Assembly: GCA_963728445.1 (NCBI GenBank)
Contig: CAVSJO010000008.1
Coordinates: 122,333 to 186,332, forward strand
Direction: 5' to 3'
DNA length: 64,000 nt
Source: an uncultured Gemmatimonadales bacterium
Lineage (GTDB): Bacteria > Gemmatimonadota > Gemmatimonadetes > Longimicrobiales > RSA9
Shown here: in pieces, positions 7,814-23,893 of the stretch
Position numbering within the stretch: the stretch's first letter is position 1
How the letters are laid out: every line of letters starts with the position of its first letter
Position numbers and translations under genes: made by a program
Notes under the pieces: generated by a model
The model's input: only the letters and a program-made list of their open reading frames with translations
Database searches by the model: none
What the model was told of the DNA's origin: nothing

Positions 7814-8614
7814 CTAGAGCGCGTCGAGGAAGCGGACGACGGCCCGGCGGAACTCCTCCGGCGATTCCAACGGCGGGAGATGGCCCGACGGCCCCACCAC
7901 GGAGAGGCCGCCGGCGGGGAAGCCGCCGGCCAGCACACGCGCCTCCTCCGGCGGCGTGACGGGATCCTGGTCTCCGACGATCACGAGGACGGGGCAGGCG
8001 ACGCCCGGCAGGCGGCCGGAGTGGTCGTCGCGCTCTGCCATTCCGAGGGACGCCCGGGCCACGCCTTCGGGGCTCGACCGGCGCATCATCTGCACGACCT
8101 CCCGCACCGTCTCGGGTCGATCGGCGAGGGTGGAGGCGGCGAGGAGCCGGGGGGCCATTTCGTCGGCGATCCCGGCGACGCCCTCGGCGCGGGCGCGGGA
8201 GGCCACGAGGGCGCGGCGGCGGCGGCCCTCCTCGTCGTCGGCCGTCGCGCGGGTGTCCGACAGGACCAGGGCACGAACCCGCTGGGGCGCGAGCTCCTGC
8301 AGCGCGAGGGCCACGTACCCGCCCATGGAGAGGCCGCACACGACGGCGTGCTCGGCCCCGACGTGATCGAGGAGGGCGAGGAGGTCCCGGGCGAAGCGCC
8401 GCATGGAGTGCCGCTCTGCAAGGCCGAGTCCGGAGCCGCCGAAGCCACGCAGGTCCGGCGCGATCGCTCGCCACCCGGCGGGCGACTCTTCGAGGAGGTG
8501 CCGCCAGAGCCCTGCGTCCAGCGGAAACCCGTGCACGAGGAGGAGGACGTCGTCGTCAGCGCCACCGGCTTCGTGCCAGTGGAGGCGGGCGCCCTCGACC
8601 TCGAGGGAGGGCAT
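7814..8614 (-). CDS. Alpha/beta fold hydrolase
   Basis: HGFP oxyanion motif, DLRGFG, GLSMGG nucleophile elbow, GDQD, GHL. Confidence 0.88.
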   Translation of the reverse strand: MPSLEVEGARLHWHEAGGADDDVLLLVHGFPLDAGLWRHLLEESPAGWRAIAPDLRGFGGSGLGLAERHSMRRFARDLLALLDHVGAEHAVVCGLSMGGYVALALQELAPQRVRALVLSDTRATADDEEGRRRRALVASRARAEGVAGIADEMAPRLLAASTLADRPETVREVVQMMRRSSPEGVARASLGMAERDDHSGRLPGVACPVLVIVGDQDPVTPPEEARVLAGGFPAGGLSVVGPSGHLPPLESPEEFRRAVVRFLDAL

Positions 8615-8633: not shown

Positions 8634-8930
8634 TCAGATGCCGAGGGACGACCGGATCAGCGGATCGATCCGCTCGGGCGACCACTGGGGCTCGAACGTG
8701 AGCTCGATCTCGGCCTCGTTCACGCCGTCCAGGTCCTCCACCGCCGTGCGTGCATCCTCCACGATCTGCGTGGCCGCCGGACACATCGGCGAGGTCAGGG
8801 ACATGAGCACGTGCACGCGGTCGTCCGTGATGTCGATCTCGTAGACGAGGCCGAGCACTACCACGTCCAGATTCAGCTCCGGGTCCTTCACGCTGCGCAG
8901 CGCCTTCCGTACCGTCTTCTCGTCAGTCAT
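8634..8930 (-). CDS. sufT: DUF59/SufT metal-sulfur cluster assembly factor
   Basis: DPEL...LGLVY...LTSPMCP...FEPQWSPERI. Confidence 0.85.
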   Translation of the reverse strand: MTDEKTVRKALRSVKDPELNLDVVVLGLVYEIDITDDRVHVLMSLTSPMCPAATQIVEDARTAVEDLDGVNEAEIELTFEPQWSPERIDPLIRSSLGI

Positions 8931-9083
8931 GCAAAATTCCATGGCTCGGGGTCGCGTCCGGTCCTATACCCCCGTTCGGCGCGCGGCGGTCCGGCCGGAC
9001 GCACGGGCAAGGAACGTCTCCTGCAGCACAGTGGCCGCGGGGAGCCCCGAACTCAAGTCGGCGCCCGCGCGCGGGCCGAACGT

Positions 9084-10499: not shown

Positions 10500-10614
10500 C
10501 CCGGCCCGCGCGCCATCCGCCGCCGGCGTCGCGTTGAAGCGATACTGCGCGGCGGGTATCTTCCCCCGGGGCGGTGCCCCACCGAATCCCTCGACATCTC
10601 ACAGGAAGACGAGC

Positions 10615-13086
10615 ATGAACCTGCGTCACGCCCTGGCCGGGTGCGCGCTGGCGGCCGCCGCGGCCGCTCCGCTCGCGGCTCAGCAGCAGGGATCCTTTGA
10701 GCTCACCGTGAACAGCATCATGCGCGGGCCGGAGCTCGTGGGAGAGGCGCCGTCCCGCGTCACCTGGACGCCCGACGGCCAGTGGGTCTACTTCCGCTGG
10801 AAGCCCGGCGGCGAGGCGTGGAACGAGGAGCCGTCGCTCTACCGCGTGCGGTCGTCCGGCAGAGAGCCGGAGAAGCTGACGGACGAGGAGGCGGACTCCC
10901 TCGGCGTGCTGCTCGCTTCGGGCGACGTCTCCCGGGACCGGTCGCGGCGCGTCGTCTCCTACGAGGGGGACCTCTATCTGATCCGGCGTCAACCGCTGTC
11001 GATCCGCCGGCTGACGCGCACGAAGGCGGTCGAGGCGGAGCCGGTCTTCTCGAAGGACGCCAGCCGCGTCTACTTCGTCCGGGACGACAACGTGTTCGCC
11101 CTCGATCTGGGTGCCGGGGCCGTGCGTCAGCTCACGGACATCCGAAAGGGTCCGAAGCCGAAGGAGGAAGAGAAGGCCGAGGGCCAGCGCGCGTTCCTGG
11201 AGGAGCAGCAGAAGGAGCTGTTCGAGACCATCCGGGTCCGGGAACAGGAAGAGGCCGAGCGGAAGGCACGCAGGGAGGCGAAGGAGAAGGAGGGGCTGCA
11301 GACGGTCTGGATCGGACCGAAGGAGCGGGTCTTCGCTCTCGCGGTGGATCCGGACGGGGAGCACGCGGTGCTGACCGTCGGCAATCCGGGCGAGGACCGG
11401 AGCACGCTCGTGCCGAAATGGGTGACGGAGTCCGGCTACGTGGAGAGCATCCAGGGGCGCCCGAAGGTGGGGGACGAGGAGCCGATGGCGCGCATGGCCC
11501 TGGTCGATCTCTCGGACGGCACCGCCCGGTGGCTGGACGTGGGGCCGCCCGGCGGTGACGAGACCGAGCCGCCGGCCGCGGGGGCCGACAGCGCCGTCGT
11601 GGACGCCGCTGCCGCGGACAGCTCCGGAAACGCCACGTCGGCGGCTCATGCCCCCCGGCCGCGCTTCGCCCGGATCTCCTTCCTCGGCTGGAACGACGCG
11701 GGCACGAAGGGCCTCGTCGGGGCGGTCTCCTATGACTACAAGGACCAGTGGCTGCAGGTGCTCGACGCCGGAACCGGTCAGCTGACGACGATCGCCCACG
11801 ACCACGATGACGCGTGGATCGGCGGTCCCTGCGACCCGTGGCTGAGCTCGAGCTGCGCCGGCTGGATCCCGGACGCCGACGCTGCCTGGTTCGTCAGCGA
11901 GCGGAGCGGCTGGTCCCACCTCTACCGCGTTCGGGCGGAGGCCGGCGCGGAGCCGAAGCAGCTCACGAGCGGGCAGTGGGAGGTGAAGGACGCCGGCATC
12001 GCGCCGGACCGACGCCACTTCGGGATGCACACCAGCGAGCGCTCGGCGTTCGACCAGGACTTCTATCGCATGGGCCTGGAGGGCGGCGAGCGAACCCGGC
12101 TCACGCAGGACCCCGGGCTGCACAGCGTCACGCTGTCACCGGACGGCGACGAAATGGCCGACGTGTACTCGACGTCGAACCACCCGCCGGAGCTCTACCT
12201 GGCGGACGCGAAACCGGGCGCGAAGCGGGAGCGCATCACGACCTCACCCACCGCAGAGTGGAGCGCCTATCCCTGGATCGCGCCGGAGATCGTGACGGTG
12301 CCGGCCCGCGATGGGGTGAAGGTTCCGGCCCGCATCTATCGGCCCGCCGACGTGGGCGCCACGCCGAACGGGGCGGGCGTCATCTTCGTCCACGGCGCCG
12401 GGTACCTGCACAACGTGCATCACGGCTGGAGCGACTATTTCCGCGAGTACATGTTCAACCACCTCCTCGCCTCCAAAGGCTACGTGGTGCTGGACATGGA
12501 CTACCGCGGCTCCGCCGGCTACGGGCGCGACTGGCGGACGGCGATCTACAGGCACATGGGCGGGAAGGACCTGACGGACCAGGTCGACGGCGTGAAGTAT
12601 CTCGTCGCGAACGAGGGCGTACAGGACCCGGAGCGGGTCGGCATCTACGGCGGCTCGTACGGCGGGTTCATCACCCTCATGGCTCTCTTCACCCAGCCGG
12701 ACTGGTTCGGGGCGGGCGCGGCCCTGCGCTCCGTCACGGACTGGGCGCACTACAATCACTGGTACACGGCCCGGATCCTGAACCTGCCGCAGGACGACAG
12801 CACGGCGTACCGGCAGAGCTCGCCGATCTACTTCGCCGACGGGCTGCAGGACCCGCTCCTCATCGCCCACGGGATGCAGGACACCAACGTAGAGTTCCAG
12901 GATGTGGTCCGGCTGGTGCAGCGGCTGATCGAGTTGAAGAAGACGGGGTGGGAGCTGGCGGTCTTCCCGGTGGAGAACCACGGCTTCGTGGAGCCGACGT
13001 CCTGGATGGACGAGTACCGGCGCATCCTGGCGCTCTTCCAGCGGACCGTAGGCTCACCGGCCGCCGCGAGGACCGATCCCCGGTAG
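10615..13086 (+). CDS. Secreted S9 family (DPP IV-like) serine peptidase
   Basis: Signal peptide; beta-propeller N-domain; GGSYGG, DTNV, ENHGF triad motifs. Confidence 0.9.
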   Translation: MNLRHALAGCALAAAAAAPLAAQQQGSFELTVNSIMRGPELVGEAPSRVTWTPDGQWVYFRWKPGGEAWNEEPSLYRVRSSGREPEKLTDEEADSLGVLLASGDVSRDRSRRVVSYEGDLYLIRRQPLSIRRLTRTKAVEAEPVFSKDASRVYFVRDDNVFALDLGAGAVRQLTDIRKGPKPKEEEKAEGQRAFLEEQQKELFETIRVREQEEAERKARREAKEKEGLQTVWIGPKERVFALAVDPDGEHAVLTVGNPGEDRSTLVPKWVTESGYVESIQGRPKVGDEEPMARMALVDLSDGTARWLDVGPPGGDETEPPAAGADSAVVDAAAADSSGNATSAAHAPRPRFARISFLGWNDAGTKGLVGAVSYDYKDQWLQVLDAGTGQLTTIAHDHDDAWIGGPCDPWLSSSCAGWIPDADAAWFVSERSGWSHLYRVRAEAGAEPKQLTSGQWEVKDAGIAPDRRHFGMHTSERSAFDQDFYRMGLEGGERTRLTQDPGLHSVTLSPDGDEMADVYSTSNHPPELYLADAKPGAKRERITTSPTAEWSAYPWIAPEIVTVPARDGVKVPARIYRPADVGATPNGAGVIFVHGAGYLHNVHHGWSDYFREYMFNHLLASKGYVVLDMDYRGSAGYGRDWRTAIYRHMGGKDLTDQVDGVKYLVANEGVQDPERVGIYGGSYGGFITLMALFTQPDWFGAGAALRSVTDWAHYNHWYTARILNLPQDDSTAYRQSSPIYFADGLQDPLLIAHGMQDTNVEFQDVVRLVQRLIELKKTGWELAVFPVENHGFVEPTSWMDEYRRILALFQRTVGSPAAARTDPR

Positions 13087-13177: not shown

Positions 13178-13819
13178 TCAGCCCGCCCGATTCCGCAGGA
13201 CCCGGCCGGCGTAGCCGTTGTCCGCGTCCTCGCCACGGCTCCGGAGCCGATCCACGGTTCCGGGGCCGCGGTTGTACGCCGTCAGCGCGGTCCAGATGTC
13301 TCCGTCGTACCGGTCGATCAGGTAGTGCAGGTAGCGGAATCCGAGGCGGAGGTTGGTGTCCGTCTCGAAGAGGTCGCCGCGGGCGGTGCCCGGCACCAGC
13401 CAGCGGGCGGTGGCCGGCATCACCTGTGTGTAGCCCACGGCACCGACGGGCGAGACGGCAGTCCGGCGGAAGCTCGACTCGGTTCGAACGAGCTGGAACG
13501 CGACGCGCGGGCGGACGTTCTCTGCGAGCGCGGCCCGCGTGATGCGGTCCGCGAGGTCGATGGGGACGTCGTACTCGTCCGCCAAGTGGGTCGTGAGCTG
13601 AAGTCGAGAAGCCGCGTCTCGCAGCCTGGCGCGGTGCTCGGCGACGGTCGGATTGACCGGCGCCGCGGCGGCGTCCGCCGCGGCGGTGTGGAAGCCGGCG
13701 AGGAACTCCGCCGGGTGTGTGAGCGCGGCCGGCGCCACGAGCAGCGTGGCGACGAGGGCACGTATGAGGGGCCGCCGAACGGATGGCAGCCGCCGAGCTC
13801 GAAGGAGCGTGCGCGTCAC
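13178..13819 (-). CDS. Lytic transglycosylase (SLT domain)
   Basis: VRTESSF, AVSPVGAVGYTQVMPATA, AYNRGPG. Confidence 0.88.
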   Translation of the reverse strand: MTRTLLRARRLPSVRRPLIRALVATLLVAPAALTHPAEFLAGFHTAAADAAAAPVNPTVAEHRARLRDAASRLQLTTHLADEYDVPIDLADRITRAALAENVRPRVAFQLVRTESSFRRTAVSPVGAVGYTQVMPATARWLVPGTARGDLFETDTNLRLGFRYLHYLIDRYDGDIWTALTAYNRGPGTVDRLRSRGEDADNGYAGRVLRNRAG

Positions 13820-15170: not shown

Positions 15171-15929
15171 TCAGACGCCTTCGCGATGCATCAGCCAGTC
15201 GGCGAGCCAGAGACCGGCGACCAGGTCCAGCGCCGCGTGGGCTGCCATCGCCGGCAGCACGCTGCCGACCAGAACGAGCGGCAGCGCGAGTACGAAGCCG
15301 AGGAGCGTCGCCCGGAGGACGCCGGTTGCGCCCTGATAGGAGTGGACGAGTCCGAACGCGACGGAGGAGACGGCGGCTCCAATCCAGACGTTACCGGATG
15401 CGGCGCCGATGGCCGGCACGAGAAAGGACCGGAACGCCAGCTCCTCGCCGATGCCGGCCGAGAGGGAGACGCCGACGAAAGCCCAGCGCTCGGCCCGCGT
15501 CGAAGGGAGCACCAGGTCGACGAGCGTGGTCTCGGAGGCGCCGAGCAGCCGGGCGACGACGAGCACGGCGATCCCGGCGGCCAGGGCGATGGCCGCCCAG
15601 CCGTACGCGGGCCCCGCGCCCGGCCAGCGAAGGCCGAGGAGGGCGGGCGTGAAGCCGGCGCCGAGTCCGAGGACAAGGCCGACGGCGCCCATGGCCCAGA
15701 TCGCGGCCGCCGACGAGGCGTAAACGGACATGCGGGACCCCGCCGCGGCAGTCAGGTCGGCACGCGCCAGCATGTCGGCCTGGAGGAGCGTGAGGGCGGG
15801 CAGGAAGACCAGGAAGAGAACCACGCCGACGCGCCCGGGCCACGGGAGGGGCGTGGCGGCGAACCATGCCACGGCCGCCGCGACCAGAACCGCGGCGGCC
15901 AGCGCTCGCCGATTCAATCCGCCGTCCAC
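15171..15929 (-). CDS. CPBP/Abi family intramembrane glutamic endopeptidase
   Basis: GIGEELAFRSF, FGLVHSYQG, AAHAALD; multiple TM segments. Confidence 0.88.
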   Translation of the reverse strand: MDGGLNRRALAAAVLVAAAVAWFAATPLPWPGRVGVVLFLVFLPALTLLQADMLARADLTAAAGSRMSVYASSAAAIWAMGAVGLVLGLGAGFTPALLGLRWPGAGPAYGWAAIALAAGIAVLVVARLLGASETTLVDLVLPSTRAERWAFVGVSLSAGIGEELAFRSFLVPAIGAASGNVWIGAAVSSVAFGLVHSYQGATGVLRATLLGFVLALPLVLVGSVLPAMAAHAALDLVAGLWLADWLMHREGV

Positions 15930-15930
15930 G

Positions 15931-16836
15931 TCAGGTCTCCCCGCGAAGACGGCGGTACAGCCGCGGCGCGACGCCGGCCGCCGCGAGTCCAAGCAGGAGG
16001 CCCGTGGAGGCATCGACGGCGTAGTGGAAGCCGCCGTAGACGGCGCCGAGCGCCAGTCCGGCGGTGAGGACGGCAGCCACCGACAGGAACGCCGGCAGGT
16101 AGAGGGCCACGTTCACGCACTGGGCGGCGGAAACGCCGACGTGCGACGAGGGGAAGGCCGCGCCGCGGCTGGAGCCGGACTCCAGGATCCGGTGCGCCAG
16201 GGCCCAGGCAGGTCCCCGGGCGCTTGCGGCCACGGGCGTGGGGAACAGGTAGCGGGGTCCCTGGACCGGGAAGTACACGAAGAAGAGGTAGTGCACGAAG
16301 AAGGCGAGCATGAGGGCGAAGACCGACTTCAGAAAGGCCGGTCGCCGGCCCCTCGAGTAGAGGATCAGGGGCGGCCCGTAGATGAGGAGATAGTACGACA
16401 GATAGGACGCGTGCAGCCACTCGGAGAGAGCCTTCCAGGTGAAGCGGGCGGCCAGGTCGTGGCTGGGGTAGCCGCCGAACACGGCATGCTCGGCGGTCAG
16501 GATGAGCGGATCGAAGTAGCGCCCGTTCCACACCGCCACGTTCAGCACCGCCAGCTCGGAGTAGAGCACGGGGATGAGGAGCAGCGGGTACCAGTCGGCC
16601 GTGAAGCGGGAGGCTCGCGGGAACGCCTTCCCCATCCGGGCGAGCCCGCGGCCGAAGGGCCCGATCCGGAGCGCGAACAGGATTCCGAAGAGATGGAAGG
16701 CCGCCCAAACCGGCCACGTGGGCGGCCGGTGTGGGAACACGAGAGCGACGCCGGCCGCGGCCAGGTACGCGGCGAAGAGGAGATCGACGGGTCGGGGCCG
16801 GCCGCGCGGCTCCGTTCCCGGGCAGGGAACCGTCAC
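15931..16836 (-). CDS. PAP2 superfamily membrane protein, Aur1/inositol-phosphorylceramide-synthase-like
   Basis: FPVQGPRY, AAFPSSHV, YGGFHYAVD motifs; about 8 TM segments. Confidence 0.8.
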   Translation of the reverse strand: MTVPCPGTEPRGRPRPVDLLFAAYLAAAGVALVFPHRPPTWPVWAAFHLFGILFALRIGPFGRGLARMGKAFPRASRFTADWYPLLLIPVLYSELAVLNVAVWNGRYFDPLILTAEHAVFGGYPSHDLAARFTWKALSEWLHASYLSYYLLIYGPPLILYSRGRRPAFLKSVFALMLAFFVHYLFFVYFPVQGPRYLFPTPVAASARGPAWALAHRILESGSSRGAAFPSSHVGVSAAQCVNVALYLPAFLSVAAVLTAGLALGAVYGGFHYAVDASTGLLLGLAAAGVAPRLYRRLRGET

Positions 16837-17984
16837 CCGGCCCCACCGACCGCCCGGTCGTAGATCCTGTACGTCTTGTACACGACGGCTCCCATCTGCT
16901 CGAGCGCCCGGCGCATCTCCCAGTTGTCCTCGAGGATCCAGGAGCACTCCCCACGGATGGTGCCGTCCGCCAGGGCCTGCCTGTAGAACTCGAGATACAG
17001 CATGGCGTCGATCCCGAGGCGACGGTATCCCGGCTCCACGCCAAGCGTGAGGACCCGGACCTGGTCGATCTTCCGCCGGTACCACAGGAGCTTGAAGATT
17101 CCGAAGGGCAGCAGACGGCCGTCGATATGGCGTAGCGCCTGGTTGAAGTCGGGCAGACCGATGCCGAATGCGATGGGACTGCCCCGTACCTCGGCGAAGA
17201 GGATGTACCGCGGCTCGGCCACAGGCTTGAGCTGCTTCGCCATGACCTGGAACTCCTCGTGGGTCATGGGCACGAAGCCCCAGTTGCTCTCCCACGCCCG
17301 ATTGTAGATTCCTTCCATGACGGCGACCTCTTCGTCGAACTTCGACAGATCCGCGTGCCGGATGCGGATCCCCTTGCGCTCGGCGATTCGGGCCGTGCCC
17401 CTGACGAGCCGCTCCGGGGGCGGCGTGGTCGGCAGCTCGTAGGCCAGGAGGTCCTTCGCCTTCCGGAAACCCGTACCCTCGATGAGCCGCTCGTAGTAGC
17501 GCGGGTTGTACGTCATCATGATGAACGGCGGCTCGTGGAACCCGTCCACGAGCAGCCCGCACTCCTCGTTCGTCGAGAAGTTCATCGGTCCGCGCAGGAT
17601 CCGCATCCCACGATCGGCGACGTACGCCTCGGCGGCGTCGAGGAGCGCCGCAGCCGCCTCGGGATCGTCCTCGCACTCGAAGAATCCGAAGAAGCCGGCC
17701 TTTTCGTCGTGGAACTGAACGTGGAGATGGTTCACGATGGCGGCGATCCGGCCGACGACGCGCTCGCCCCGGCGGGCGAGGAAGTACTCGACCTCGGCGT
17801 GCTGGTGGAACGGATGCTTCTCCCGGTCGAGGAGCATCTTCTGGTCGTGAAGCAGAGGGGGGACCCAATCTGGGTCCCCCCGATAGATCGACCACGGCAG
17901 GCGCAGGAATGCCTGCAGGTCCATCCCGCCCGAGAGCGGCTCGACCCGCACCCCCTGACTCCCACCGGCCGTTCCGAGGCTCAC
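16833..17984 (-). CDS. GNAT N-acyltransferase, bacterial ceramide synthase-like (YghO-type)
   Basis: WVPPL, VGRIAA, GFFGFFE, GPMNFSTNEECGLLVDGF, YNPRYY, NWGFVP, SWILEDN; coupled to the Spt gene. Confidence 0.8.
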   Translation of the reverse strand: MSLGTAGGSQGVRVEPLSGGMDLQAFLRLPWSIYRGDPDWVPPLLHDQKMLLDREKHPFHQHAEVEYFLARRGERVVGRIAAIVNHLHVQFHDEKAGFFGFFECEDDPEAAAALLDAAEAYVADRGMRILRGPMNFSTNEECGLLVDGFHEPPFIMMTYNPRYYERLIEGTGFRKAKDLLAYELPTTPPPERLVRGTARIAERKGIRIRHADLSKFDEEVAVMEGIYNRAWESNWGFVPMTHEEFQVMAKQLKPVAEPRYILFAEVRGSPIAFGIGLPDFNQALRHIDGRLLPFGIFKLLWYRRKIDQVRVLTLGVEPGYRRLGIDAMLYLEFYRQALADGTIRGECSWILEDNWEMRRALEQMGAVVYKTYRIYDRAVGGAG

Positions 17985-19177
17985 AGGACGCCCATCTCGC
18001 GGCCGACATGGCCGAAGGCGTCGAGTACCGCGTCGACGTGATCGTCGTCGTGGGTCGCCATCATGGAGACCCGCAGCCTGCACGAGCTCGGCGGGACGGC
18101 GGGCGGCGTCACCGGGTTCGTGTATACGCCGCGGTCGAAAAGCGCCCGCCAGAAGTGGAGGGTGTCGTAGATCTCGCCGATGTGGACCGGGATGATCGGG
18201 GTCTCGCTGCCGCCGATGTTGTAGCCGAGAGAGATCAGGCCTTCCTGCATGCGGCGCGTGTTGTGCCAGAGCCGCTCGCGCCGTTCCGGGTCGCTCTGCA
18301 GGACCTCGAGGGCCGTCAGCACGGTGGCGACGGCGGCAGGGGGCATGCTCGCGCTGAAGATCAGGCTGCGGGCGTTGTGCTTCAGGTAGTGGATGACCGG
18401 CTCCTCGCCGGCGATGACGCCGCCGATGGAGGCGAGGGACTTGGAGAAGGTGCCCATGATGAGGGCCACGTCCTGCTCGAGGCCGAAATGCTCGGCAGTC
18501 CCGGCGCCCCGGGTGCCCAGCACGCCGAGGGAGTGAGCGTCGTCCACCATGATCTCTGCGCCGTGGCGGTGCGCCACCTCGACCAGGCGGGGCAGATCGA
18601 CGATCGTCCCTTCCATGGAGAAGATGCCGTCCGTGACGATGAGCTTCCCCTCCCCGTCGGGCGTCGCGGCGAGCTGCCGCTCGAGCTGGTCCAGATCACC
18701 GTGGGAATACCGGTGCACCGTCCCGTACGCCAGCCGTGCGCCGTCCACGATGCTGGCATGGTCGAGCTTGTCCAGATACACGTGGTCGTTACGGCCGACG
18801 AGCGTCGAGATCGCACCGAGATTGCTCTGGAATCCGGTGCTGAAGACGACGGCGGCCTCCTTGTTCAGGAAAGCCGCCAGGCGGTCCTCCAGTTTCTCGT
18901 GAAGATCCAGGGTGCCGTTCAGGAACCGGCTGCCGGTGCACCCGCTGCCGTAGCGCCGCAACGCGTCCGCCGCGGCCTCCATCACCCGGGGGTGGTGCGT
19001 CAGCCCGAGATAGTTGTTCGAGCCGACCATGATCTTGCGCTCGCCCCGGATCATCACCTCGGTGTCGAAGGACGCCTCGATCGGCTGGAAGTACGGGTAG
19101 ACCCCCGCGGCCTGCGCCTCCCGCGCCGCCGTGAACGTGTAGCACTTGTCGAACAGGCTCGTGACGGTCGGCTTCAT
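17981..19177 (-). CDS. spt: Alpha-oxoamine synthase, probable serine palmitoyltransferase
   Basis: GVYPYF, GSNNYLGL, GSRFLNGT, HASIVDG, DDAHS, PLP-lysine motif GTFSKS; genomic context. Confidence 0.78.
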   Translation of the reverse strand: MKPTVTSLFDKCYTFTAAREAQAAGVYPYFQPIEASFDTEVMIRGERKIMVGSNNYLGLTHHPRVMEAAADALRRYGSGCTGSRFLNGTLDLHEKLEDRLAAFLNKEAAVVFSTGFQSNLGAISTLVGRNDHVYLDKLDHASIVDGARLAYGTVHRYSHGDLDQLERQLAATPDGEGKLIVTDGIFSMEGTIVDLPRLVEVAHRHGAEIMVDDAHSLGVLGTRGAGTAEHFGLEQDVALIMGTFSKSLASIGGVIAGEEPVIHYLKHNARSLIFSASMPPAAVATVLTALEVLQSDPERRERLWHNTRRMQEGLISLGYNIGGSETPIIPVHIGEIYDTLHFWRALFDRGVYTNPVTPPAVPPSSCRLRVSMMATHDDDHVDAVLDAFGHVGREMGVL

Positions 19178-19225
19178 GGGTAGCCCGCCTTCCGGGTGGC
19201 CGTCGGATCGTAGTCTTGTATTCAC

Positions 19226-20357
19226 TTACAGATATCCGTTTGAACGGTACCAGCGTGCCGTCTGTTTCAATCCCTCCGGAAGCGACCAGCGTGGCTCCCA
19301 GTCGAGCTCACGCCGGGCGGGCCCGGTGTCACACAGCCAGCCCGGCGCCAGCAACTCCCGGACCTTGTCCCGATTGACGATGGTCGCTCCACCCGTCACG
19401 CCGGCGGCCGCCTCGGCGACCCGTGCGACAGCCCGGACGAGCGAGCGCGGCACCTTCACCCGGACGGCTCGGCGGCCGACCGCGTCGGCGATCATCTCTG
19501 CCACTTCCGACCACCGATACGCTCTCGGCTCGGCGGCCTGATAGACGCCGCCGTCGCGCCCCCGACCCGACGCGGCCGCCGCAAGTGCACGAACGAGGTC
19601 CTCCACGTGGACCAGCTGCACCCAGCGCTCCGGCCCCGCCGGAAGCGGCAGCAGGCCTCGCCGGGCCAGACGGAAGTAGATCAGCAGGTCCCTGTCCCGC
19701 GGCCCGTAGACCGCGGGCGCCCGCACCACGATGGGCGAAAGGTCCTGCGCCTCGATGGCGATTCGCTCGCCCGCGAGCTTGCTGCGTCCGTACGCCGTGA
19801 TCGGCCGTGGCTCGTCCTCGGCGGTGACGGCGGCGAGGCCGATGGACGGACCGGCGGCCGCCATGGAGCTCACGTACACCAGCCGCCCCGGCGTCGGATC
19901 CGCCGACCGCATGGCGGCCACGAGGTTCGCCGTCGCGTCGACGTTTGCGCGCCGGTACTCGGCCTCGCTCCTCGCCCGCGTGGCGGCCGCCAGGTGCAGC
20001 ACGACGTCCGCCCCCTCCACCGCGGCGCGCAGCGAGCCCGGATCCCCGAAATCGGCTACGACCTGCTCGACGTCGAGTTCCGCCAACCTGCTCGTGTCGC
20101 TGTTCGATACGGACGATCGCCACCGGCTCGATCCCGAGCGCGCGCAGCGCATCCGGCAGTGCCCCTCCGACGAAGCCGGTCGCTCCCGTGACTGCGGCTC
20201 TCAGCCGGCGCTCCCGCCCGTGGACGCCGGAACGTGCGGACTGTGCGGATCGGGGCAGTGGGAAAGAGCCCGCAGACGGGCGGGTCGCGTCCGTCCCGCG
20301 CGCTCCCGTCCGGGGGGGCGCGGCGCGAGGTCGGTCGTCAGCGAATTCATTCCGCAA
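19226..20357 (-). CDS. NAD(P)-dependent epimerase/SDR (ceramide reductase CerR-like), frameshifted near 20108; start uncertain
   Basis: VTGATGFVG in one frame; HLAA, YVSSMAA, YGRSK, VYGPRD in another. Confidence 0.75.
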
Positions 20358-20382: not shown

Positions 20383-21736
20383 TCAAGCCATCGGGTGTAC
20401 CGCGCCCGCGTGGACGCGCCTCAGCTGCTCCTCGATCACTTCGAGAGCCGCCTCGAGGCAGCCGCGCCCGATCGAGAGCGGCGGCGTGACGGCGAGCAGG
20501 TCGGCGGCCGGGCCCTCGGACAGCAGGATCACGCCGGCCCGGAGGCTCGCGGCCACGATCCCGGAGGCGACTTCTCCGCCGGAGCGCTCGCCGCGGGGGT
20601 CCTCCAGCCGCACGCCCCGCATCAGCCCGACGCCGCGGGACTCGACCACGAGGTCCGGGAAAGAGCACACGCCATTCCTCCATGCGGTCCGCCACCACGC
20701 GGCCGACGCGCTCGGCGCGGCGCACGAGGCCCCGCCGGCCGATTTCGCCCAGGTGAGCCAGCGCGGCGGCGCACGCGACGGGGTTTCCGAGGAAGGTGCT
20801 GGTGTGGAGCGCCTCGCCCTGCCAGGGCGGCCACGCGGCCATCACCTCCGGCGTGCCGATGGCAGCGCTCAGCGGCAGCGAGCCGGCGAGTGCCTTGCCG
20901 ACCACGAGCACGTCCGGCACCACGCCCGAGTGTTCGCACGCGAACCAGCGCCCGGTCCGGCCGAAGCCGGTGTACACCTCGTCGAAGATCAGGACCGCGG
21001 CGTGGCCGTCGCAGAGTCGGCGCAGGCCGGGGAGGAACTCCGGTGGGGGGACGACGAACCCGCCACGTCCGAGCACGGGCTCGACGATGACGGCCCCTGC
21101 GCCCGCTTCGAGGGCCGAGCGGACCGCGTCGAGGGAGGGACGGGGGTCGTCGCCCGGGCCCGGATAGGGTGCGAACGTCACGTGGGGGTTGAGCTGCGCG
21201 GCGAAGGGATCACGAAACTCCCTCCGCCCCGTCACGGCCAGCGCGCCGTACGTGAGGCCGTGGTAGGAGCCCTCGAAGGCCACGATGCCGGGCCGCCCGG
21301 TCCGCAGGAGCGCCGTCTTCAACGCGGCCTCCACAGCCTCCGCACCGGCACTCGCCAGCACGGCAACCGACAGCGCGCCGGGCGCCAGGTCCGCCAGCCG
21401 CTCGAGAAGAGCCAGCTTCACGTCTGCGGGGTACACGTCTCCGAGGGCGTGTGACAGGCGCCGGGCCTGCCGGCCGATGGCTTCGGCCACCGCCGCGTTT
21501 CCGTGCCCGGCGGCGAGGACGCCGAACCCGGCGGTCAGATCGACGTAGACATTTCCGTCCACGTCCCGTACGTTCGCGCCCCGGGCCGCGGCCCAGAAGA
21601 TCGGCGCTGCCGCCGGGCCGGGGGCGAGATTGCGCGACTCGACCGCCGCGATGCGTCCGGCGAACTCCACGGATCGCGGGCCTGGCACCTCCGTGATCAG
21701 GTCGGGCGGCGCCGCACCGAAGCGGAAGGCGCTCAC
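20383..21736 (-). CDS. Class III PLP aminotransferase (GabT-like), frameshifted near 20661
   Basis: DVDGNVYVD, GAEAVEAALK, FEGSYHG, DEVYTGFGRTG, GKAL, TFLGNP; C-terminus RGVGLMRG continues in the 20383-20670 frame. Confidence 0.85.
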
Positions 21737-21798
21737 GCGGGCATGTCGGTTGCACCCCCGAAGGGGCGACACACGGTGAGGTCAGCAGGGGTCATGAC

Positions 21799-22302
21799 GT
21801 GAATATACAAGGAACGGTGAGGCTTTCGATCATCGCGCTGGCGACGGCGGCGGCCGGGGCGTGCGGGCACGGCGCCGACGTGGGGTCGCCGGCGGACAGC
21901 AGCGTCGCGCGTCCGTCGACGGCGACGGCGGCGGCAGCGAGCCCCACCGTCCGGGCGAACAGCGCCGCCCCAGCGGCCGACTCGCCGCAGGCGCGCGCCT
22001 ACGCCAGCGGCGCCCGGCCGGAATGGACGCCCGACGACATCTACTACGATCTGCAGCAGTTCGACTGGTACCGCCGCGGCGAGCCCCTCCAGGCGAATGG
22101 CGAGCCGTACACGCTGGCGGGCGCTCCGGTCCGTGTCGCCGACGCCGCGATGGACTCTGCGGGCGACTACCAGGGGGTGGCGTACTACCGCGCCCGGGCA
22201 GGCACCGAGGGGGACGTGGACGCCGTCTACGTTCCGGTCTTCCCCCACTACTGGCAGACCTTCGTTCGTCGGGGCGGCGCTTCCGTGGCGGCCTCCCGCT
22301 GA
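21799..22302 (+). CDS. Hypothetical lipoprotein
   Basis: Lipobox AAGAC; Ala/Ser linker followed by an aromatic-rich domain. Confidence 0.7.
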   Translation: MNIQGTVRLSIIALATAAAGACGHGADVGSPADSSVARPSTATAAAASPTVRANSAAPAADSPQARAYASGARPEWTPDDIYYDLQQFDWYRRGEPLQANGEPYTLAGAPVRVADAAMDSAGDYQGVAYYRARAGTEGDVDAVYVPVFPHYWQTFVRRGGASVAASR

Positions 22303-22318
22303 GCGGCCGGCCCGGGTC

Positions 22319-23275
22319 ATGAGCGCCACGAAGGCGGCCACGCCAGGCTCCGGGCGCGCACTGCGGCCGCCTCGGCTGCGGCCGGGCGACCGCGTGGTGC
22401 TCGTCGCGCCGGCGGGCCCGGTGACGCGAACGCGCATCCGTACGGCGCTGCGGCACTGCGAGGCGCTGGGCCTGCGGCCACTGCTCGGCGAATCGGCCCA
22501 CGAGCGCCAGGGCTACCTGGCGGGCTCGGACGCCCAGCGGGCGGCGGACCTGCAGGCCGCGATACACGACGATTCCATCGCGGCCATCTGGGCGATCCGC
22601 GGCGGCTACGGCACGATGCGGCTGCTCCGGTCGCTGGACCTCTCGCCGCTGCGGGCGCGACCAAAGGCGTTCATCGGCTTCAGCGACAACACGGCGCTGC
22701 ACCTGGCTATCGCCCGTGAAGGGGTGGTCTCCTTTCACGGTCCCCATGCCGGCTTCGGCGAGTTCCCGGAGTGGGCCGAATCCTGTTTCCGGGACGTCCT
22801 GTTCCGGGCGACGCCGCCCGGTCGGCTGCCGGCGCCTCCCGACGCCGCCTCGGCCGCCGTGCTGCGCGAAGGCGTCGCGGAGGGCGACCTGATCGGGGGC
22901 AACCTTTCGCTGCTGGCGGCGCTGTGCGGTACGGAGTGGAGCCTGCGTGCCCGGGGCCGAATCGTCTTCATCGAGGACGTCAGCGAGCCCGTGTACCGCA
23001 TCGACAGGATGCTGGCGCAGCTCGCGCTCTCGGGGGCGATGGAGGGCGTCGCCGGCGTCGCGTTCGGGCACTTCACCCGGATCACGCCCATGAAGGACCA
23101 GCGGCCCCTCGGGCTGGTCCTCAAGGAGTGGGTGGATCAGCTCGGCGTCCCGGCCGTGGCGGGGCTGCCGTTCGGACACATCGCCAACAACTGGACCCTT
23201 CCCGTCGGCGTCCGGGCGCGGCTGGACGCCACGGGCGGCACGCTCGACGTGCTCGAGACGGCCGTCAGCGAGTGA
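22319..23275 (+). CDS. ldcA: S66 family LD-carboxypeptidase
   Basis: RGGYG, GFSDNT, GGNLS, IEDV, PFGH. Confidence 0.9.
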   Translation: MSATKAATPGSGRALRPPRLRPGDRVVLVAPAGPVTRTRIRTALRHCEALGLRPLLGESAHERQGYLAGSDAQRAADLQAAIHDDSIAAIWAIRGGYGTMRLLRSLDLSPLRARPKAFIGFSDNTALHLAIAREGVVSFHGPHAGFGEFPEWAESCFRDVLFRATPPGRLPAPPDAASAAVLREGVAEGDLIGGNLSLLAALCGTEWSLRARGRIVFIEDVSEPVYRIDRMLAQLALSGAMEGVAGVAFGHFTRITPMKDQRPLGLVLKEWVDQLGVPAVAGLPFGHIANNWTLPVGVRARLDATGGTLDVLETAVSE

Positions 23276-23281
23276 GGCGCC

Positions 23282-23893
23282 ATGGATCGGATATACACGC
23301 GCACGGGTGACGCGGGAGAGACCGGCCTCTTCGGTGGGGGCCGCGTGCCCAAGTCGCACCCCCGTGTCGAGGCATACGGCGCCGTCGACGAGCTGAACGC
23401 GACCCTCGGCTGGGCCGTTTCCCAGCAGCAGGACCGGGACATCGCCGCCGTGCTGGAAGGCGTGCAGCCCGACCTGTTCGCCATCGGGGCGCACCTGGCG
23501 ACGCCGGTGCGGGTGCGGGGCCGCCGTCCGAAGCTTCCGCCACTGCCCGCCGCCCGCATCGCGGACCTCGAGCGGGAGATCGACGGGGCGCAGAAGGAGC
23601 TTCCAGCGCTGCGCAACTTCATCCTTCCGGGAGGAGCCGCCGGCGGCGGGTCGCTCCATCTGGCGCGGACGGTGTGCCGCCGGGCCGAGCGCCGGGTCGT
23701 CGGCCTGATGCAGGAGGAGGAGGTGGAAGGCGACGTCGTCGTCTACCTCAACCGGCTCTCGGACCTGCTCTTCGCCCTCGCGCGGCTGGCCAACGCGCGG
23801 GCGGGGCGCCCCGAGCGGCCATGGATCCCGGGCAGCGCGGAGGAGGGAGACGGAGGCGTGCACGACCCCGGCCAGGAGCCGGCGGAGTCGTAG
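23282..23893 (+). CDS. PduO-type cob(I)alamin adenosyltransferase
   Basis: IYTRTGDAGET, YGAVDELN, ARTVCRRAER, YLNRLSD. Confidence 0.92.
   Translation: MDRIYTRTGDAGETGLFGGGRVPKSHPRVEAYGAVDELNATLGWAVSQQQDRDIAAVLEGVQPDLFAIGAHLATPVRVRGRRPKLPPLPAARIADLEREIDGAQKELPALRNFILPGGAAGGGSLHLARTVCRRAERRVVGLMQEEEVEGDVVVYLNRLSDLLFALARLANARAGRPERPWIPGSAEEGDGGVHDPGQEPAES

Follow-up and report, generated by a model that had tools for sequence, protein, structure and literature searches.

Does a bacterium of the Longimicrobiales lineage of Gemmatimonadota have the genes to make sphingolipids, and does it decorate them with a phospho-head group? The question is raised by a gene cluster on contig CAVSJO010000008.1, which we analyzed within a stretch of 64,000 nt (hereafter the window; all coordinates are positions in it). 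The contig is 248 kb long and belongs to a genome of 4.3 Mb in eight contigs that is 97% complete; the G+C content of the window is 0.66-0.74. A frame plot of the G+C content at third codon positions (GC3), together with the list of open reading frames, revealed six genes that all run along the minus strand, from approximately 21772 to 15171. In 5' to 3' order, they encode a class-III aminotransferase (AT3), an extended short-chain dehydrogenase/reductase (SDR), an alpha-oxoamine synthase, a GNAT protein of approximately 372 aa, a PAP2 protein, and a CPBP protease. The original prediction had described the last five as co-oriented genes for an SDR, a synthase with a GTFSKS motif, a YghO-type GNAT, a PAP2 and a CPBP protein, and Pfam matches, frame plot and YghO homology confirmed their presence. 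Homology and synteny suggest that the genes form a sphingolipid operon, probably one for a phosphosphingolipid, a reading to which we give fair though not strong preference. The cluster would represent a new, well-supported instance of a known pathway, to which an Aur1-like head-group enzyme is a plausible addition. Specific to the window are a broken reductase gene and, in the family to which the window belongs, a PAP2 gene that is coupled to the CPBP gene and able to persist without the ceramide genes.

The alpha-oxoamine synthase groups with serine palmitoyltransferase (Spt) and not with BioF or Kbl, as revealed by NCBIfam models, the ranking of Protein Data Bank (PDB) sequences, a phylogenetic tree and reciprocal searches. 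Among the NCBIfam models, SerpalmtaseCFB gave 539.8 bits, compared to 395.5 bits for bioF and 384.3 bits for Kbl. The ten best PDB sequences were all SPT proteins, headed by the Sphingobacterium enzyme (3a2b/8guh, 459.8 bits, residues 9-390); SPT structures covered the range from 459.8 to 295 bits, whereas Kbl, cysteate acyltransferase, and BioF reached at most 286 bits. The genome encodes two other alpha-oxoamine synthases, for which BioF (354.9 bits) and Kbl (324.5 bits) are the respective top-scoring models. In a tree of 28 rows with few outgroups, the window protein is placed amid GNAT-neighbouring synthases of many phyla; the Spt of E. coli BL21 joins this clade with a support of 93/89, and E. 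coli BioF and Kbl are set apart with 97/89. The window protein is 40% identical to E. coli BL21 Spt and its reciprocal best match in the genome. Activity of the E. coli BL21 enzyme has been reported (PMC9386255).

The GNAT protein itself yielded no Pfam or NCBIfam match at E≤0.01; a single-sequence search of the PDB returned only entries with E≥0.41, and the ESM Atlas returned only generic GNAT names. Four scanned relatives, 61-66% identical, did match Acetyltransf_1 with 28-50 bits. The nature of the protein emerged from a comparison with YghO of E. coli BL21, which revealed 37% identity over 380 residues (E 2e-82), and in the reverse search it was the only match of YghO in the whole genome. 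It belongs to a large and highly conserved family: identities amount to 58-67% for the best 120 matches, which carry names such as Longimicrobiales, Gemmatimonadota, Deltaproteobacteria, and Binatia. We collected 80 loci centred on the GNAT gene, all from named genome records and from many phyla; Spt was encoded within 4 kb in 64 of them and an SDR within 5 kb in 50. The window SDR is 29% identical (E 4e-32) to ECD_02852 ('epi') of E. coli BL21 and represents the best match of this protein in the genome, with 100+29 bits as compared to 61 bits for the next one. The cluster of E. coli BL21 comprises yghO, an acyl-AMP ligase, the epimerase, an acyl carrier protein (ACP), and spt. Its yghO (ECD_02850) is the counterpart of the Caulobacter N-acyltransferase CC_1154 ('aca'), and ECD_02852 is that of CC_1164 ('epi') (PMC9386255); homology to the Caulobacter proteins was drawn through these E. 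coli BL21 counterparts. The Spt/bCerS/CerR pathway is established (PMC11087976, PMC9386255) and has been used for predicting sphingolipid producers across phyla (PMC11334938). As the original prediction had proposed, all members of this triad are present in the window, each homologous to the characterized E. coli BL21/Caulobacter set, with each recovered as the reciprocal best match. We regard the assignment of Spt, GNAT, and SDR to their families as very likely.

A distant second YghO-like GNAT paralogue, 23-27% identical to both YghO and the window GNAT, was found in four genomes (G009:C31:462630-463736, G010:C210:12835-13923, G004:C2:4553-5671, and G039:C35:20914-22032). In G039, it divergently adjoins another alpha-oxoamine synthase gene, whose product is 41% identical to the window Spt. 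This paralogue may belong to a separate N-acyl lipid pathway. We rejected it as a replacement for bCerS in these genomes, because G004 carries both copies.

From the characterized homologues, the following route can be proposed. Spt would condense serine with an acyl thioester to 3-ketosphinganine, the YghO/bCerS-type GNAT would then attach the N-acyl chain, and the CerR-type SDR would reduce the 3-keto group, which would yield dihydroceramide. Finally, the Aur1-like PAP2_3 protein would transfer a phospho-head group from a glycerophospholipid to the C1 hydroxyl of the ceramide by means of a His-His-Asp triad, with release of diacylglycerol.

The assignment of the PAP2 protein rests on its family, its triad and its fold, in all of which the predicted likeness to Aur1, the inositol-phosphoceramide (IPC) synthase, was borne out. 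The protein exceeds the cut-off of Pfam PAP2_3 (48.5 vs. 27 bits) and represents the genome's best match to this model, while the general PAP2 model gave 26.1 bits, under its own cut-off, and PAP2_C (PF14360, the sphingomyelin synthase family) no match at E≤0.01. A profile of 33 PAP2 sequences searched against the PDB placed Aur1 first (E 0.005), just before YodM/PgpB and LpxE; the single sequence retrieved no PDB entry at E≤10. Residues H232, H271, and D275 are invariant in all 33 aligned sequences and align to H255, H294, and D298 of Aur1, the triad of which is essential according to mutational data (PMC13133130). The AlphaFold (AF2) model of the protein has a pLDDT of 90 and a pTM of 0.88. 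With Foldseek, Aur1 was the sole match at E≤1e-3 (E 3.6e-4; TM 0.54-0.58 over approximately 308 columns). VIA-align also ranked Aur1 at the top, with Z values of 15.9 and 15.3 for model residues 13-295 (252 of 280 residues aligned, rmsd 4.3), followed by LpxE, which matched in the core only (Z 12.9, 162 residues), and by SMSr (Z 10.5, 198 residues).

The PAP2 gene is connected to ceramide genes well beyond the window. A profile of the subfamily recognized genes in 33 of the 80 GNAT-centred loci with 66-473 bits, compared to 26.8 bits for the next-best PAP2 paralogue genome-wide. In 32 of these 80 loci, the PAP2 gene was located within 6 kb of the GNAT gene, in at least five gene orders (S, Spt; G, GNAT; R, SDR; P, PAP2): S-G-R-P in 20, R-P-G-S in four, R-S-G-P in three, P-S-G-R in two, and others. 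When the sample was instead centred on PAP2 and drawn from metagenomes, 44 of the 47 loci with at least 1200 nt of upstream sequence contained a GNAT gene and 30 an Spt gene. Among 24 genomes of the same family as the window (counts for this family and its sister families include the unpublished genomes G015, G016, G019, and G026), Spt with 68-82% identity was encoded in 21, GNAT in 21, and PAP2 in 23. The order SDR-Spt-GNAT-PAP2-CPBP was kept in all five same-family loci compared (G012, G005, G014, G004, and G006) and was also the dominant order on metagenome contigs.

Several observations weigh against the operon reading or parts of it. With regard to the synthase, the SerpalmtaseCFB score stays below the NCBIfam cut-off of 640, and that of the BetaP SPT model (410.5 bits) below the cut-off of 500. 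Since the NCBIfam SPT models are lineage-specific, such scores lower the certainty and not the family call. The low SerpalmtaseCFB score would also suit an enzyme that takes cysteate, alanine or glycine as a substrate and leads to a sulfonolipid or a deoxy-sphingoid lipid instead of serine-derived ceramide, and cysteate-C-fatty acyltransferase is indeed a detectable relative (250.9 bits). We consider such a specificity highly improbable: the SPT structures outscored every non-SPT entry, the tree places the window protein, E. coli BL21 Spt, and the remaining GNAT-adjacent synthases in a single clade, and a GNAT-adjacent synthase of Reichenbachiella with 51% identity to that of the window passes the curated SPT cut-off (694.5 vs. 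640 bits).

More of the adverse observations concern the PAP2 protein. Its sequence-level match to Aur1, by profile and by single sequence, is weak. The His-His-Asp triad is common to PAP2 phosphatases (PMC13133130), so that the triad alone is no proof of transferase activity. Furthermore, G009, G010, and G019, which are 98, 96, and 95% complete, respectively, encode an intact PAP2 protein with the triad kept and 51-52% identity, and are devoid of operon-type Spt and GNAT genes. The loci read AT3-SDR-PAP2-CPBP in G009 and AT3-PAP2-CPBP in G019, and the gene stands alone in G010. The three proteins do not represent one recent lineage, because they are only 46-48% identical to each other. Conversely, the sister family f3 has SDR-Spt-GNAT in 8/8 genomes and this PAP2 in none (0/8 by protein, 0/5 by profile search). 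Finally, GNAT and Spt genes are both missing from the neighbourhood of PAP2 in L219 and L223, which belong to the 47 PAP2-centred loci.

Taken together, these occurrences would fit a PAP2_3 protein that, along with CPBP, is no dedicated ceramide enzyme. It would take a glycerolipid or some other membrane alcohol as its substrate or serve as a lipid phosphate phosphatase, and a shared role in the envelope would explain why its gene neighbours the ceramide genes. Two of the three genomes lacking Spt and GNAT even retain CPBP and the same upstream aminotransferase. We nevertheless regard this explanation as unlikely. It has to account for the linkage in 44/47 PAP2-centred and 32/80 GNAT-centred loci, which extends over several gene orders and phyla, for the GTGA overlap with the GNAT gene, and for a whole-length fold that corresponds to Aur1 and not to the phosphatases. 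At seven and six residues before H271, the consensus has GA, in the position of the SR motif of the phosphatases. A weak point in the same direction, as it concerns a single sequence, is the occurrence of a CerR-like SDR and a PAP2_3 domain in one protein. This protein, P0244 (631 aa), is encoded on a contig of 5.5 kb, joins an SDR 38% identical to that of the window with a PAP2_3 part of the same subfamily, and is one of four matches with longer or fused PAP2 forms; it may be a true fusion, a missed stop or a gene-calling artefact. By gene neighbourhood, the link between PAP2 and the ceramide genes is strong and not obligatory. That the PAP2 protein acts on ceramide is, on balance, the slightly better supported of the possibilities.

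The CPBP protein has the motifs EExxxR, FxxxH, and HxxxD conserved, with E162, E163, R167, F192, H196, H231, and D235 invariant in ten aligned sequences; EExxxR, FxxxH, and HxxxD/N are the motifs of the family. Its gene is predicted to be translationally coupled to that of PAP2. It follows PAP2 in 37 of the 55 metagenome loci with room downstream and does likewise in G009 and G019, both without Spt and GNAT; in the GNAT-centred set, it was present only in the two loci closest to the family of the window. A prediction of a PAP2-CPBP complex gave a score of 0.00, which weighs neither for nor against binding. We regard it as improbable that PAP2_3 and CPBP constitute a separate module of two genes that persists after the ceramide genes have been lost. 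If true, a second acceptor other than a sphingolipid would have to be assumed for this bacterial Aur1 subfamily, for example another membrane alcohol that receives phosphoinositol, and CPBP would be a partner or processing factor of PAP2, loosely like Kei1 for Aur1.

Which head group might the PAP2 protein transfer to ceramide? The genome contains a gene for inositol-phosphate synthase (MIPS, 345 bits), which is located on a different contig from the operon. A gene for a CDP-alcohol phosphatidyltransferase lies directly upstream of it (G000 C4:514352-516194; locus L232:93-2067, minus strand). The three best NCBIfam matches of this transferase were inositol-phosphate lipid synthases with 151.5, 136.7, and 128.8 bits, all of them below the cut-offs and the BT_1523 model among them, compared to 29.5 bits for PssA and 23.3 bits for PgsA. 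This suggests that the organism makes inositol phospholipids. With a gene resembling that of phosphatidylinositol-phosphate (PIP) synthase beside the MIPS gene, phosphatidylinositol is a plausible donor, and phosphoinositol would be a live candidate for the head group. We consider an inositol head group a tentative, rather unlikely assignment; phosphoethanolamine or phosphoglycerol is equally possible. The MIPS gene was rejected as a marker for the head group, as it occurs in 38 of the 41 genomes of the order, with or without PAP2, and hence does not discriminate. The idea that PAP2 is the PIP phosphatase was set aside, since MIPS also occurs in the families f2 and f3, both of which lack this PAP2.

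The remaining adverse observations concern the reductase gene. The N-terminus of the SDR with the Rossmann motif VTGATGFVGG is encoded in one frame and the remaining approximately 294 residues in another. Alignment to the closest relative, G012, in which the gene is intact and in a single frame, places one extra base within 20114-20102, corresponding to a +1 frameshift. Moreover, no ATG, GTG or TTG is present among the 13 codons preceding the Rossmann motif, and a CTG (20204-20202) occupies the position of the TTG start of G012. Among 23 related genomes (27 loci), 22 have one of these three codons at most ten codons before the motif, the exception being G002, which lacks them in those ten codons just like the window gene. 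Thus, the cerR-like gene is frameshifted and has no canonical start at the expected place, and the original description of the operon as complete is doubtful.

Either the sequence contains local errors, or the strain makes no normal ceramide. In the latter case, the pathway would be decaying in this strain, cerR would be a true pseudogene, and 3-oxo-ceramide-type products or nothing useful would be made. Besides the frameshift and the CTG, which are two lesions in the SDR gene alone, a third lesion points in this direction: approximately 550 nt upstream, the AT3 gene carries a +1 shift, with one additional base within or next to a run of TTT. Single genes have also been lost elsewhere. On metagenome contigs, Spt is directly followed by PAP2 without GNAT in L182, and SDR-GNAT-PAP2 occurs without Spt in L210 and L211, while G009 lacks both Spt and GNAT; the operon seems to have been eroded piecemeal in some lineages. 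Surveys for frame switches relative to G012 flagged 5 of 101 junctions in a first round and 3 of 117 in a second, and the two of the latter three that were inspected turned out to be plain gene borders, so that no general excess of frameshifts on the contig was shown. However, the survey is insensitive, as it missed both known shifts (SDR and AT3), and yields no error rate. One flagged site, formed by an alpha/beta hydrolase gene (7814-8614) and an FeS-assembly gene (8634-8942) on the minus strand, was rejected as a frameshift: the two genes are 20 nt apart and in different frames, with a plain gene border in the window, and correspond to one open frame in G012.

Other observations speak against decay. 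The Spt, GNAT, PAP2, and CPBP genes are all full length and free of internal stops, and the missing start codon is shared with G002. The few-contig assemblies of relatives also carry frame-split conserved genes, namely GNAT and PAP2 in G014 (L026) and MIPS in G012 (C1:531520-532741), which makes indel errors plausible. Exact pieces on public contigs, all from one soil-metagenome run, span only 19229-19439 and 19516-19795 and leave both frameshift sites and the CTG uncovered; no RNA dataset is listed among the public runs that hold parts of the stretch. We judge a real cerR lesion to be somewhat less probable than an assembly error, and a decaying pathway to be a shade less probable again.

The features of the locus are compiled in the table below.

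Genes of the putative sphingolipid operon and the preceding aminotransferase gene, in the order of transcription (positions in the window)
Feature	Position	Strand	Remarks
AT3, class-III aminotransferase (Pfam Aminotran_3)	20383-21772	-	+1 frameshift within 20668-20652
CerR-like NAD-dependent epimerase/dehydratase (extended SDR), broken in assembly	19226..20204	-	Pfam Epimerase 80.3 bits
Serine palmitoyltransferase (Spt), 399 aa	17981..19180	-	Pfam Aminotran_1_2 209.5 bits; GTFSKS pyridoxal-phosphate (PLP)-lysine motif 18454-18437
YghO/bCerS-type GNAT N-acyltransferase, candidate ceramide synthase, 372 aa	16833..17951	-	YghO homology
PAP2_3 (Aur1-like) membrane phosphotransferase, predicted, 301 aa	15931..16836	-	Pfam PAP2_3 48.5 bits
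CPBP (Rce1-like) intramembrane glutamic protease, 252 aa from GTG 15929	15171..15929	-	Pfam Rce1-like 60.8 bits

The GC3 frame plot agrees with all five operon genes on the minus strand between 20204 and 15171. The upper limit of 20357 originally assigned to the operon marks no more than the place where a long open frame has its first TTG. The stop codon of AT3 (20385-20383) is separated from the SDR gene by a gap of 178 nt. The SDR gene ends with TAA at 19228-19226, and Spt starts with the ATG at 19180, with one GTG directly abutting the SDR stop. According to the original prediction, the last four genes overlap or abut. This is correct for GNAT, PAP2, and CPBP and only roughly so for Spt, whose stop codon (17983-17981) lies 29 nt before the GTG start of GNAT at 17951. 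The stop codon of GNAT and the start codon of PAP2 share the sequence GTGA at 16836-16833, a 4-nt overlap, and the PAP2 stop (15933-15931) is followed after a spacer of 1 nt by the GTG start of CPBP at 15929. The alternative CPBP start, the first ATG at 16013, would result in an 83-nt overlap with PAP2. A scan for promoters and terminators revealed no signal above that of shuffled sequences within the operon.

AT3 is a constant syntenic neighbour in the family of the window (A-R-S-G-P-C, with A for AT3 and C for CPBP) and is intact in G012; it still adjoins the PAP2 region in G009 and G019 despite the absence of the ceramide genes. The surroundings are otherwise ordinary. On the far side of CPBP are genes for an S9 prolyl-oligopeptidase-type peptidase with a signal-like N-terminus (10534-13086, plus strand) and an SLT lytic transglycosylase (13178-13819, minus strand), and beyond AT3 those for an LD-carboxypeptidase of family S66 (22097-23275, plus strand) and a PduO-type cobalamin adenosyltransferase (23282-23893, plus strand).

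From the cluster, a Longimicrobiales lineage of Gemmatimonadota can be predicted to contain sphingolipids, which are probably phosphosphingolipids. A literature search on Gemmatimonadetes/Gemmatimonadota and sphingolipids retrieved no report of such lipids, a search on PAP2 with serine palmitoyltransferase in bacteria found no work, and a search on bacterial Aur1 homologues found only the study on BT_1522 (PMC9246714). While the core ceramide pathway is already known, the head-group step is tied to a gene in the literature searched only for BT_1522, and the PAP2_3 subfamily offers a ready candidate for this step. Genomes with PAP2 and without Spt, and those with ceramide genes and without PAP2, provide natural comparisons for the role of the enzyme.

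How does the locus compare with known systems? As in the pathway of Caulobacter crescentus and E. coli BL21(DE3), all three enzyme families are present, and in the window their genes are adjacent and co-oriented. In contrast to E. coli BL21, a genome search detected no counterpart of the specialized ACP/acyl-ACP synthetase pair: AcpR had no match, and the best match of AasR was 25% identical. Furthermore, the window Spt resembles the synthases of Bacteroidota (SerpalmtaseCFB, 3a2b) more than those of Proteobacteria, the gene order is different, and cerR is broken in the window assembly. The closest solved relative of the window Spt, whose own activity is predicted, is the enzyme of Sphingobacterium multivorum (3a2b, 8guh), which belongs to a different phylum and is not known to be encoded in an ACP-dependent cluster.

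With Aur1 of Saccharomyces cerevisiae (PDB 9ivc, 9vj3, 9vj4), the window PAP2 shares the Pfam family PAP2_3, the aligned triad and the whole-length fold, whereas the identity is only 16-19% and the window protein, with its 301 aa, is shorter. No Kei1-like partner was identified, with no search aimed at Kei1 having been made, and the CPBP neighbour belongs to a different family. The sphingomyelin synthase family (SMS/SMSr, PAP2_C) is part of the same superfamily and catalyzes the same kind of reaction, a head-group transfer to ceramide, but the window protein lacks a PAP2_C match and SMSr is the weaker structural match (Z 10.5).

The closest precedent is BT_1522 of B. thetaiotaomicron, a homologue of Aur1; phosphoinositol dihydroceramide is lost when the gene is deleted (PMC9246714). 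With this proven inositol-phosphoceramide synthase on record, the original view of an unusual route to a bacterial phosphosphingolipid does not stand. The likeness, drawn by description and not by sequence, is that of a bacterial Aur1-like enzyme that adds, or in the window would add, a phospho-head group to ceramide, in an organism that, like the one studied here, has a PIP-synthase-like gene and MIPS. The difference lies in the genomic setting: BT_1522 is part of an inositol-lipid cluster and not located beside spt, whereas the window PAP2 gene overlaps the candidate ceramide synthase gene and the inositol genes reside on another contig.

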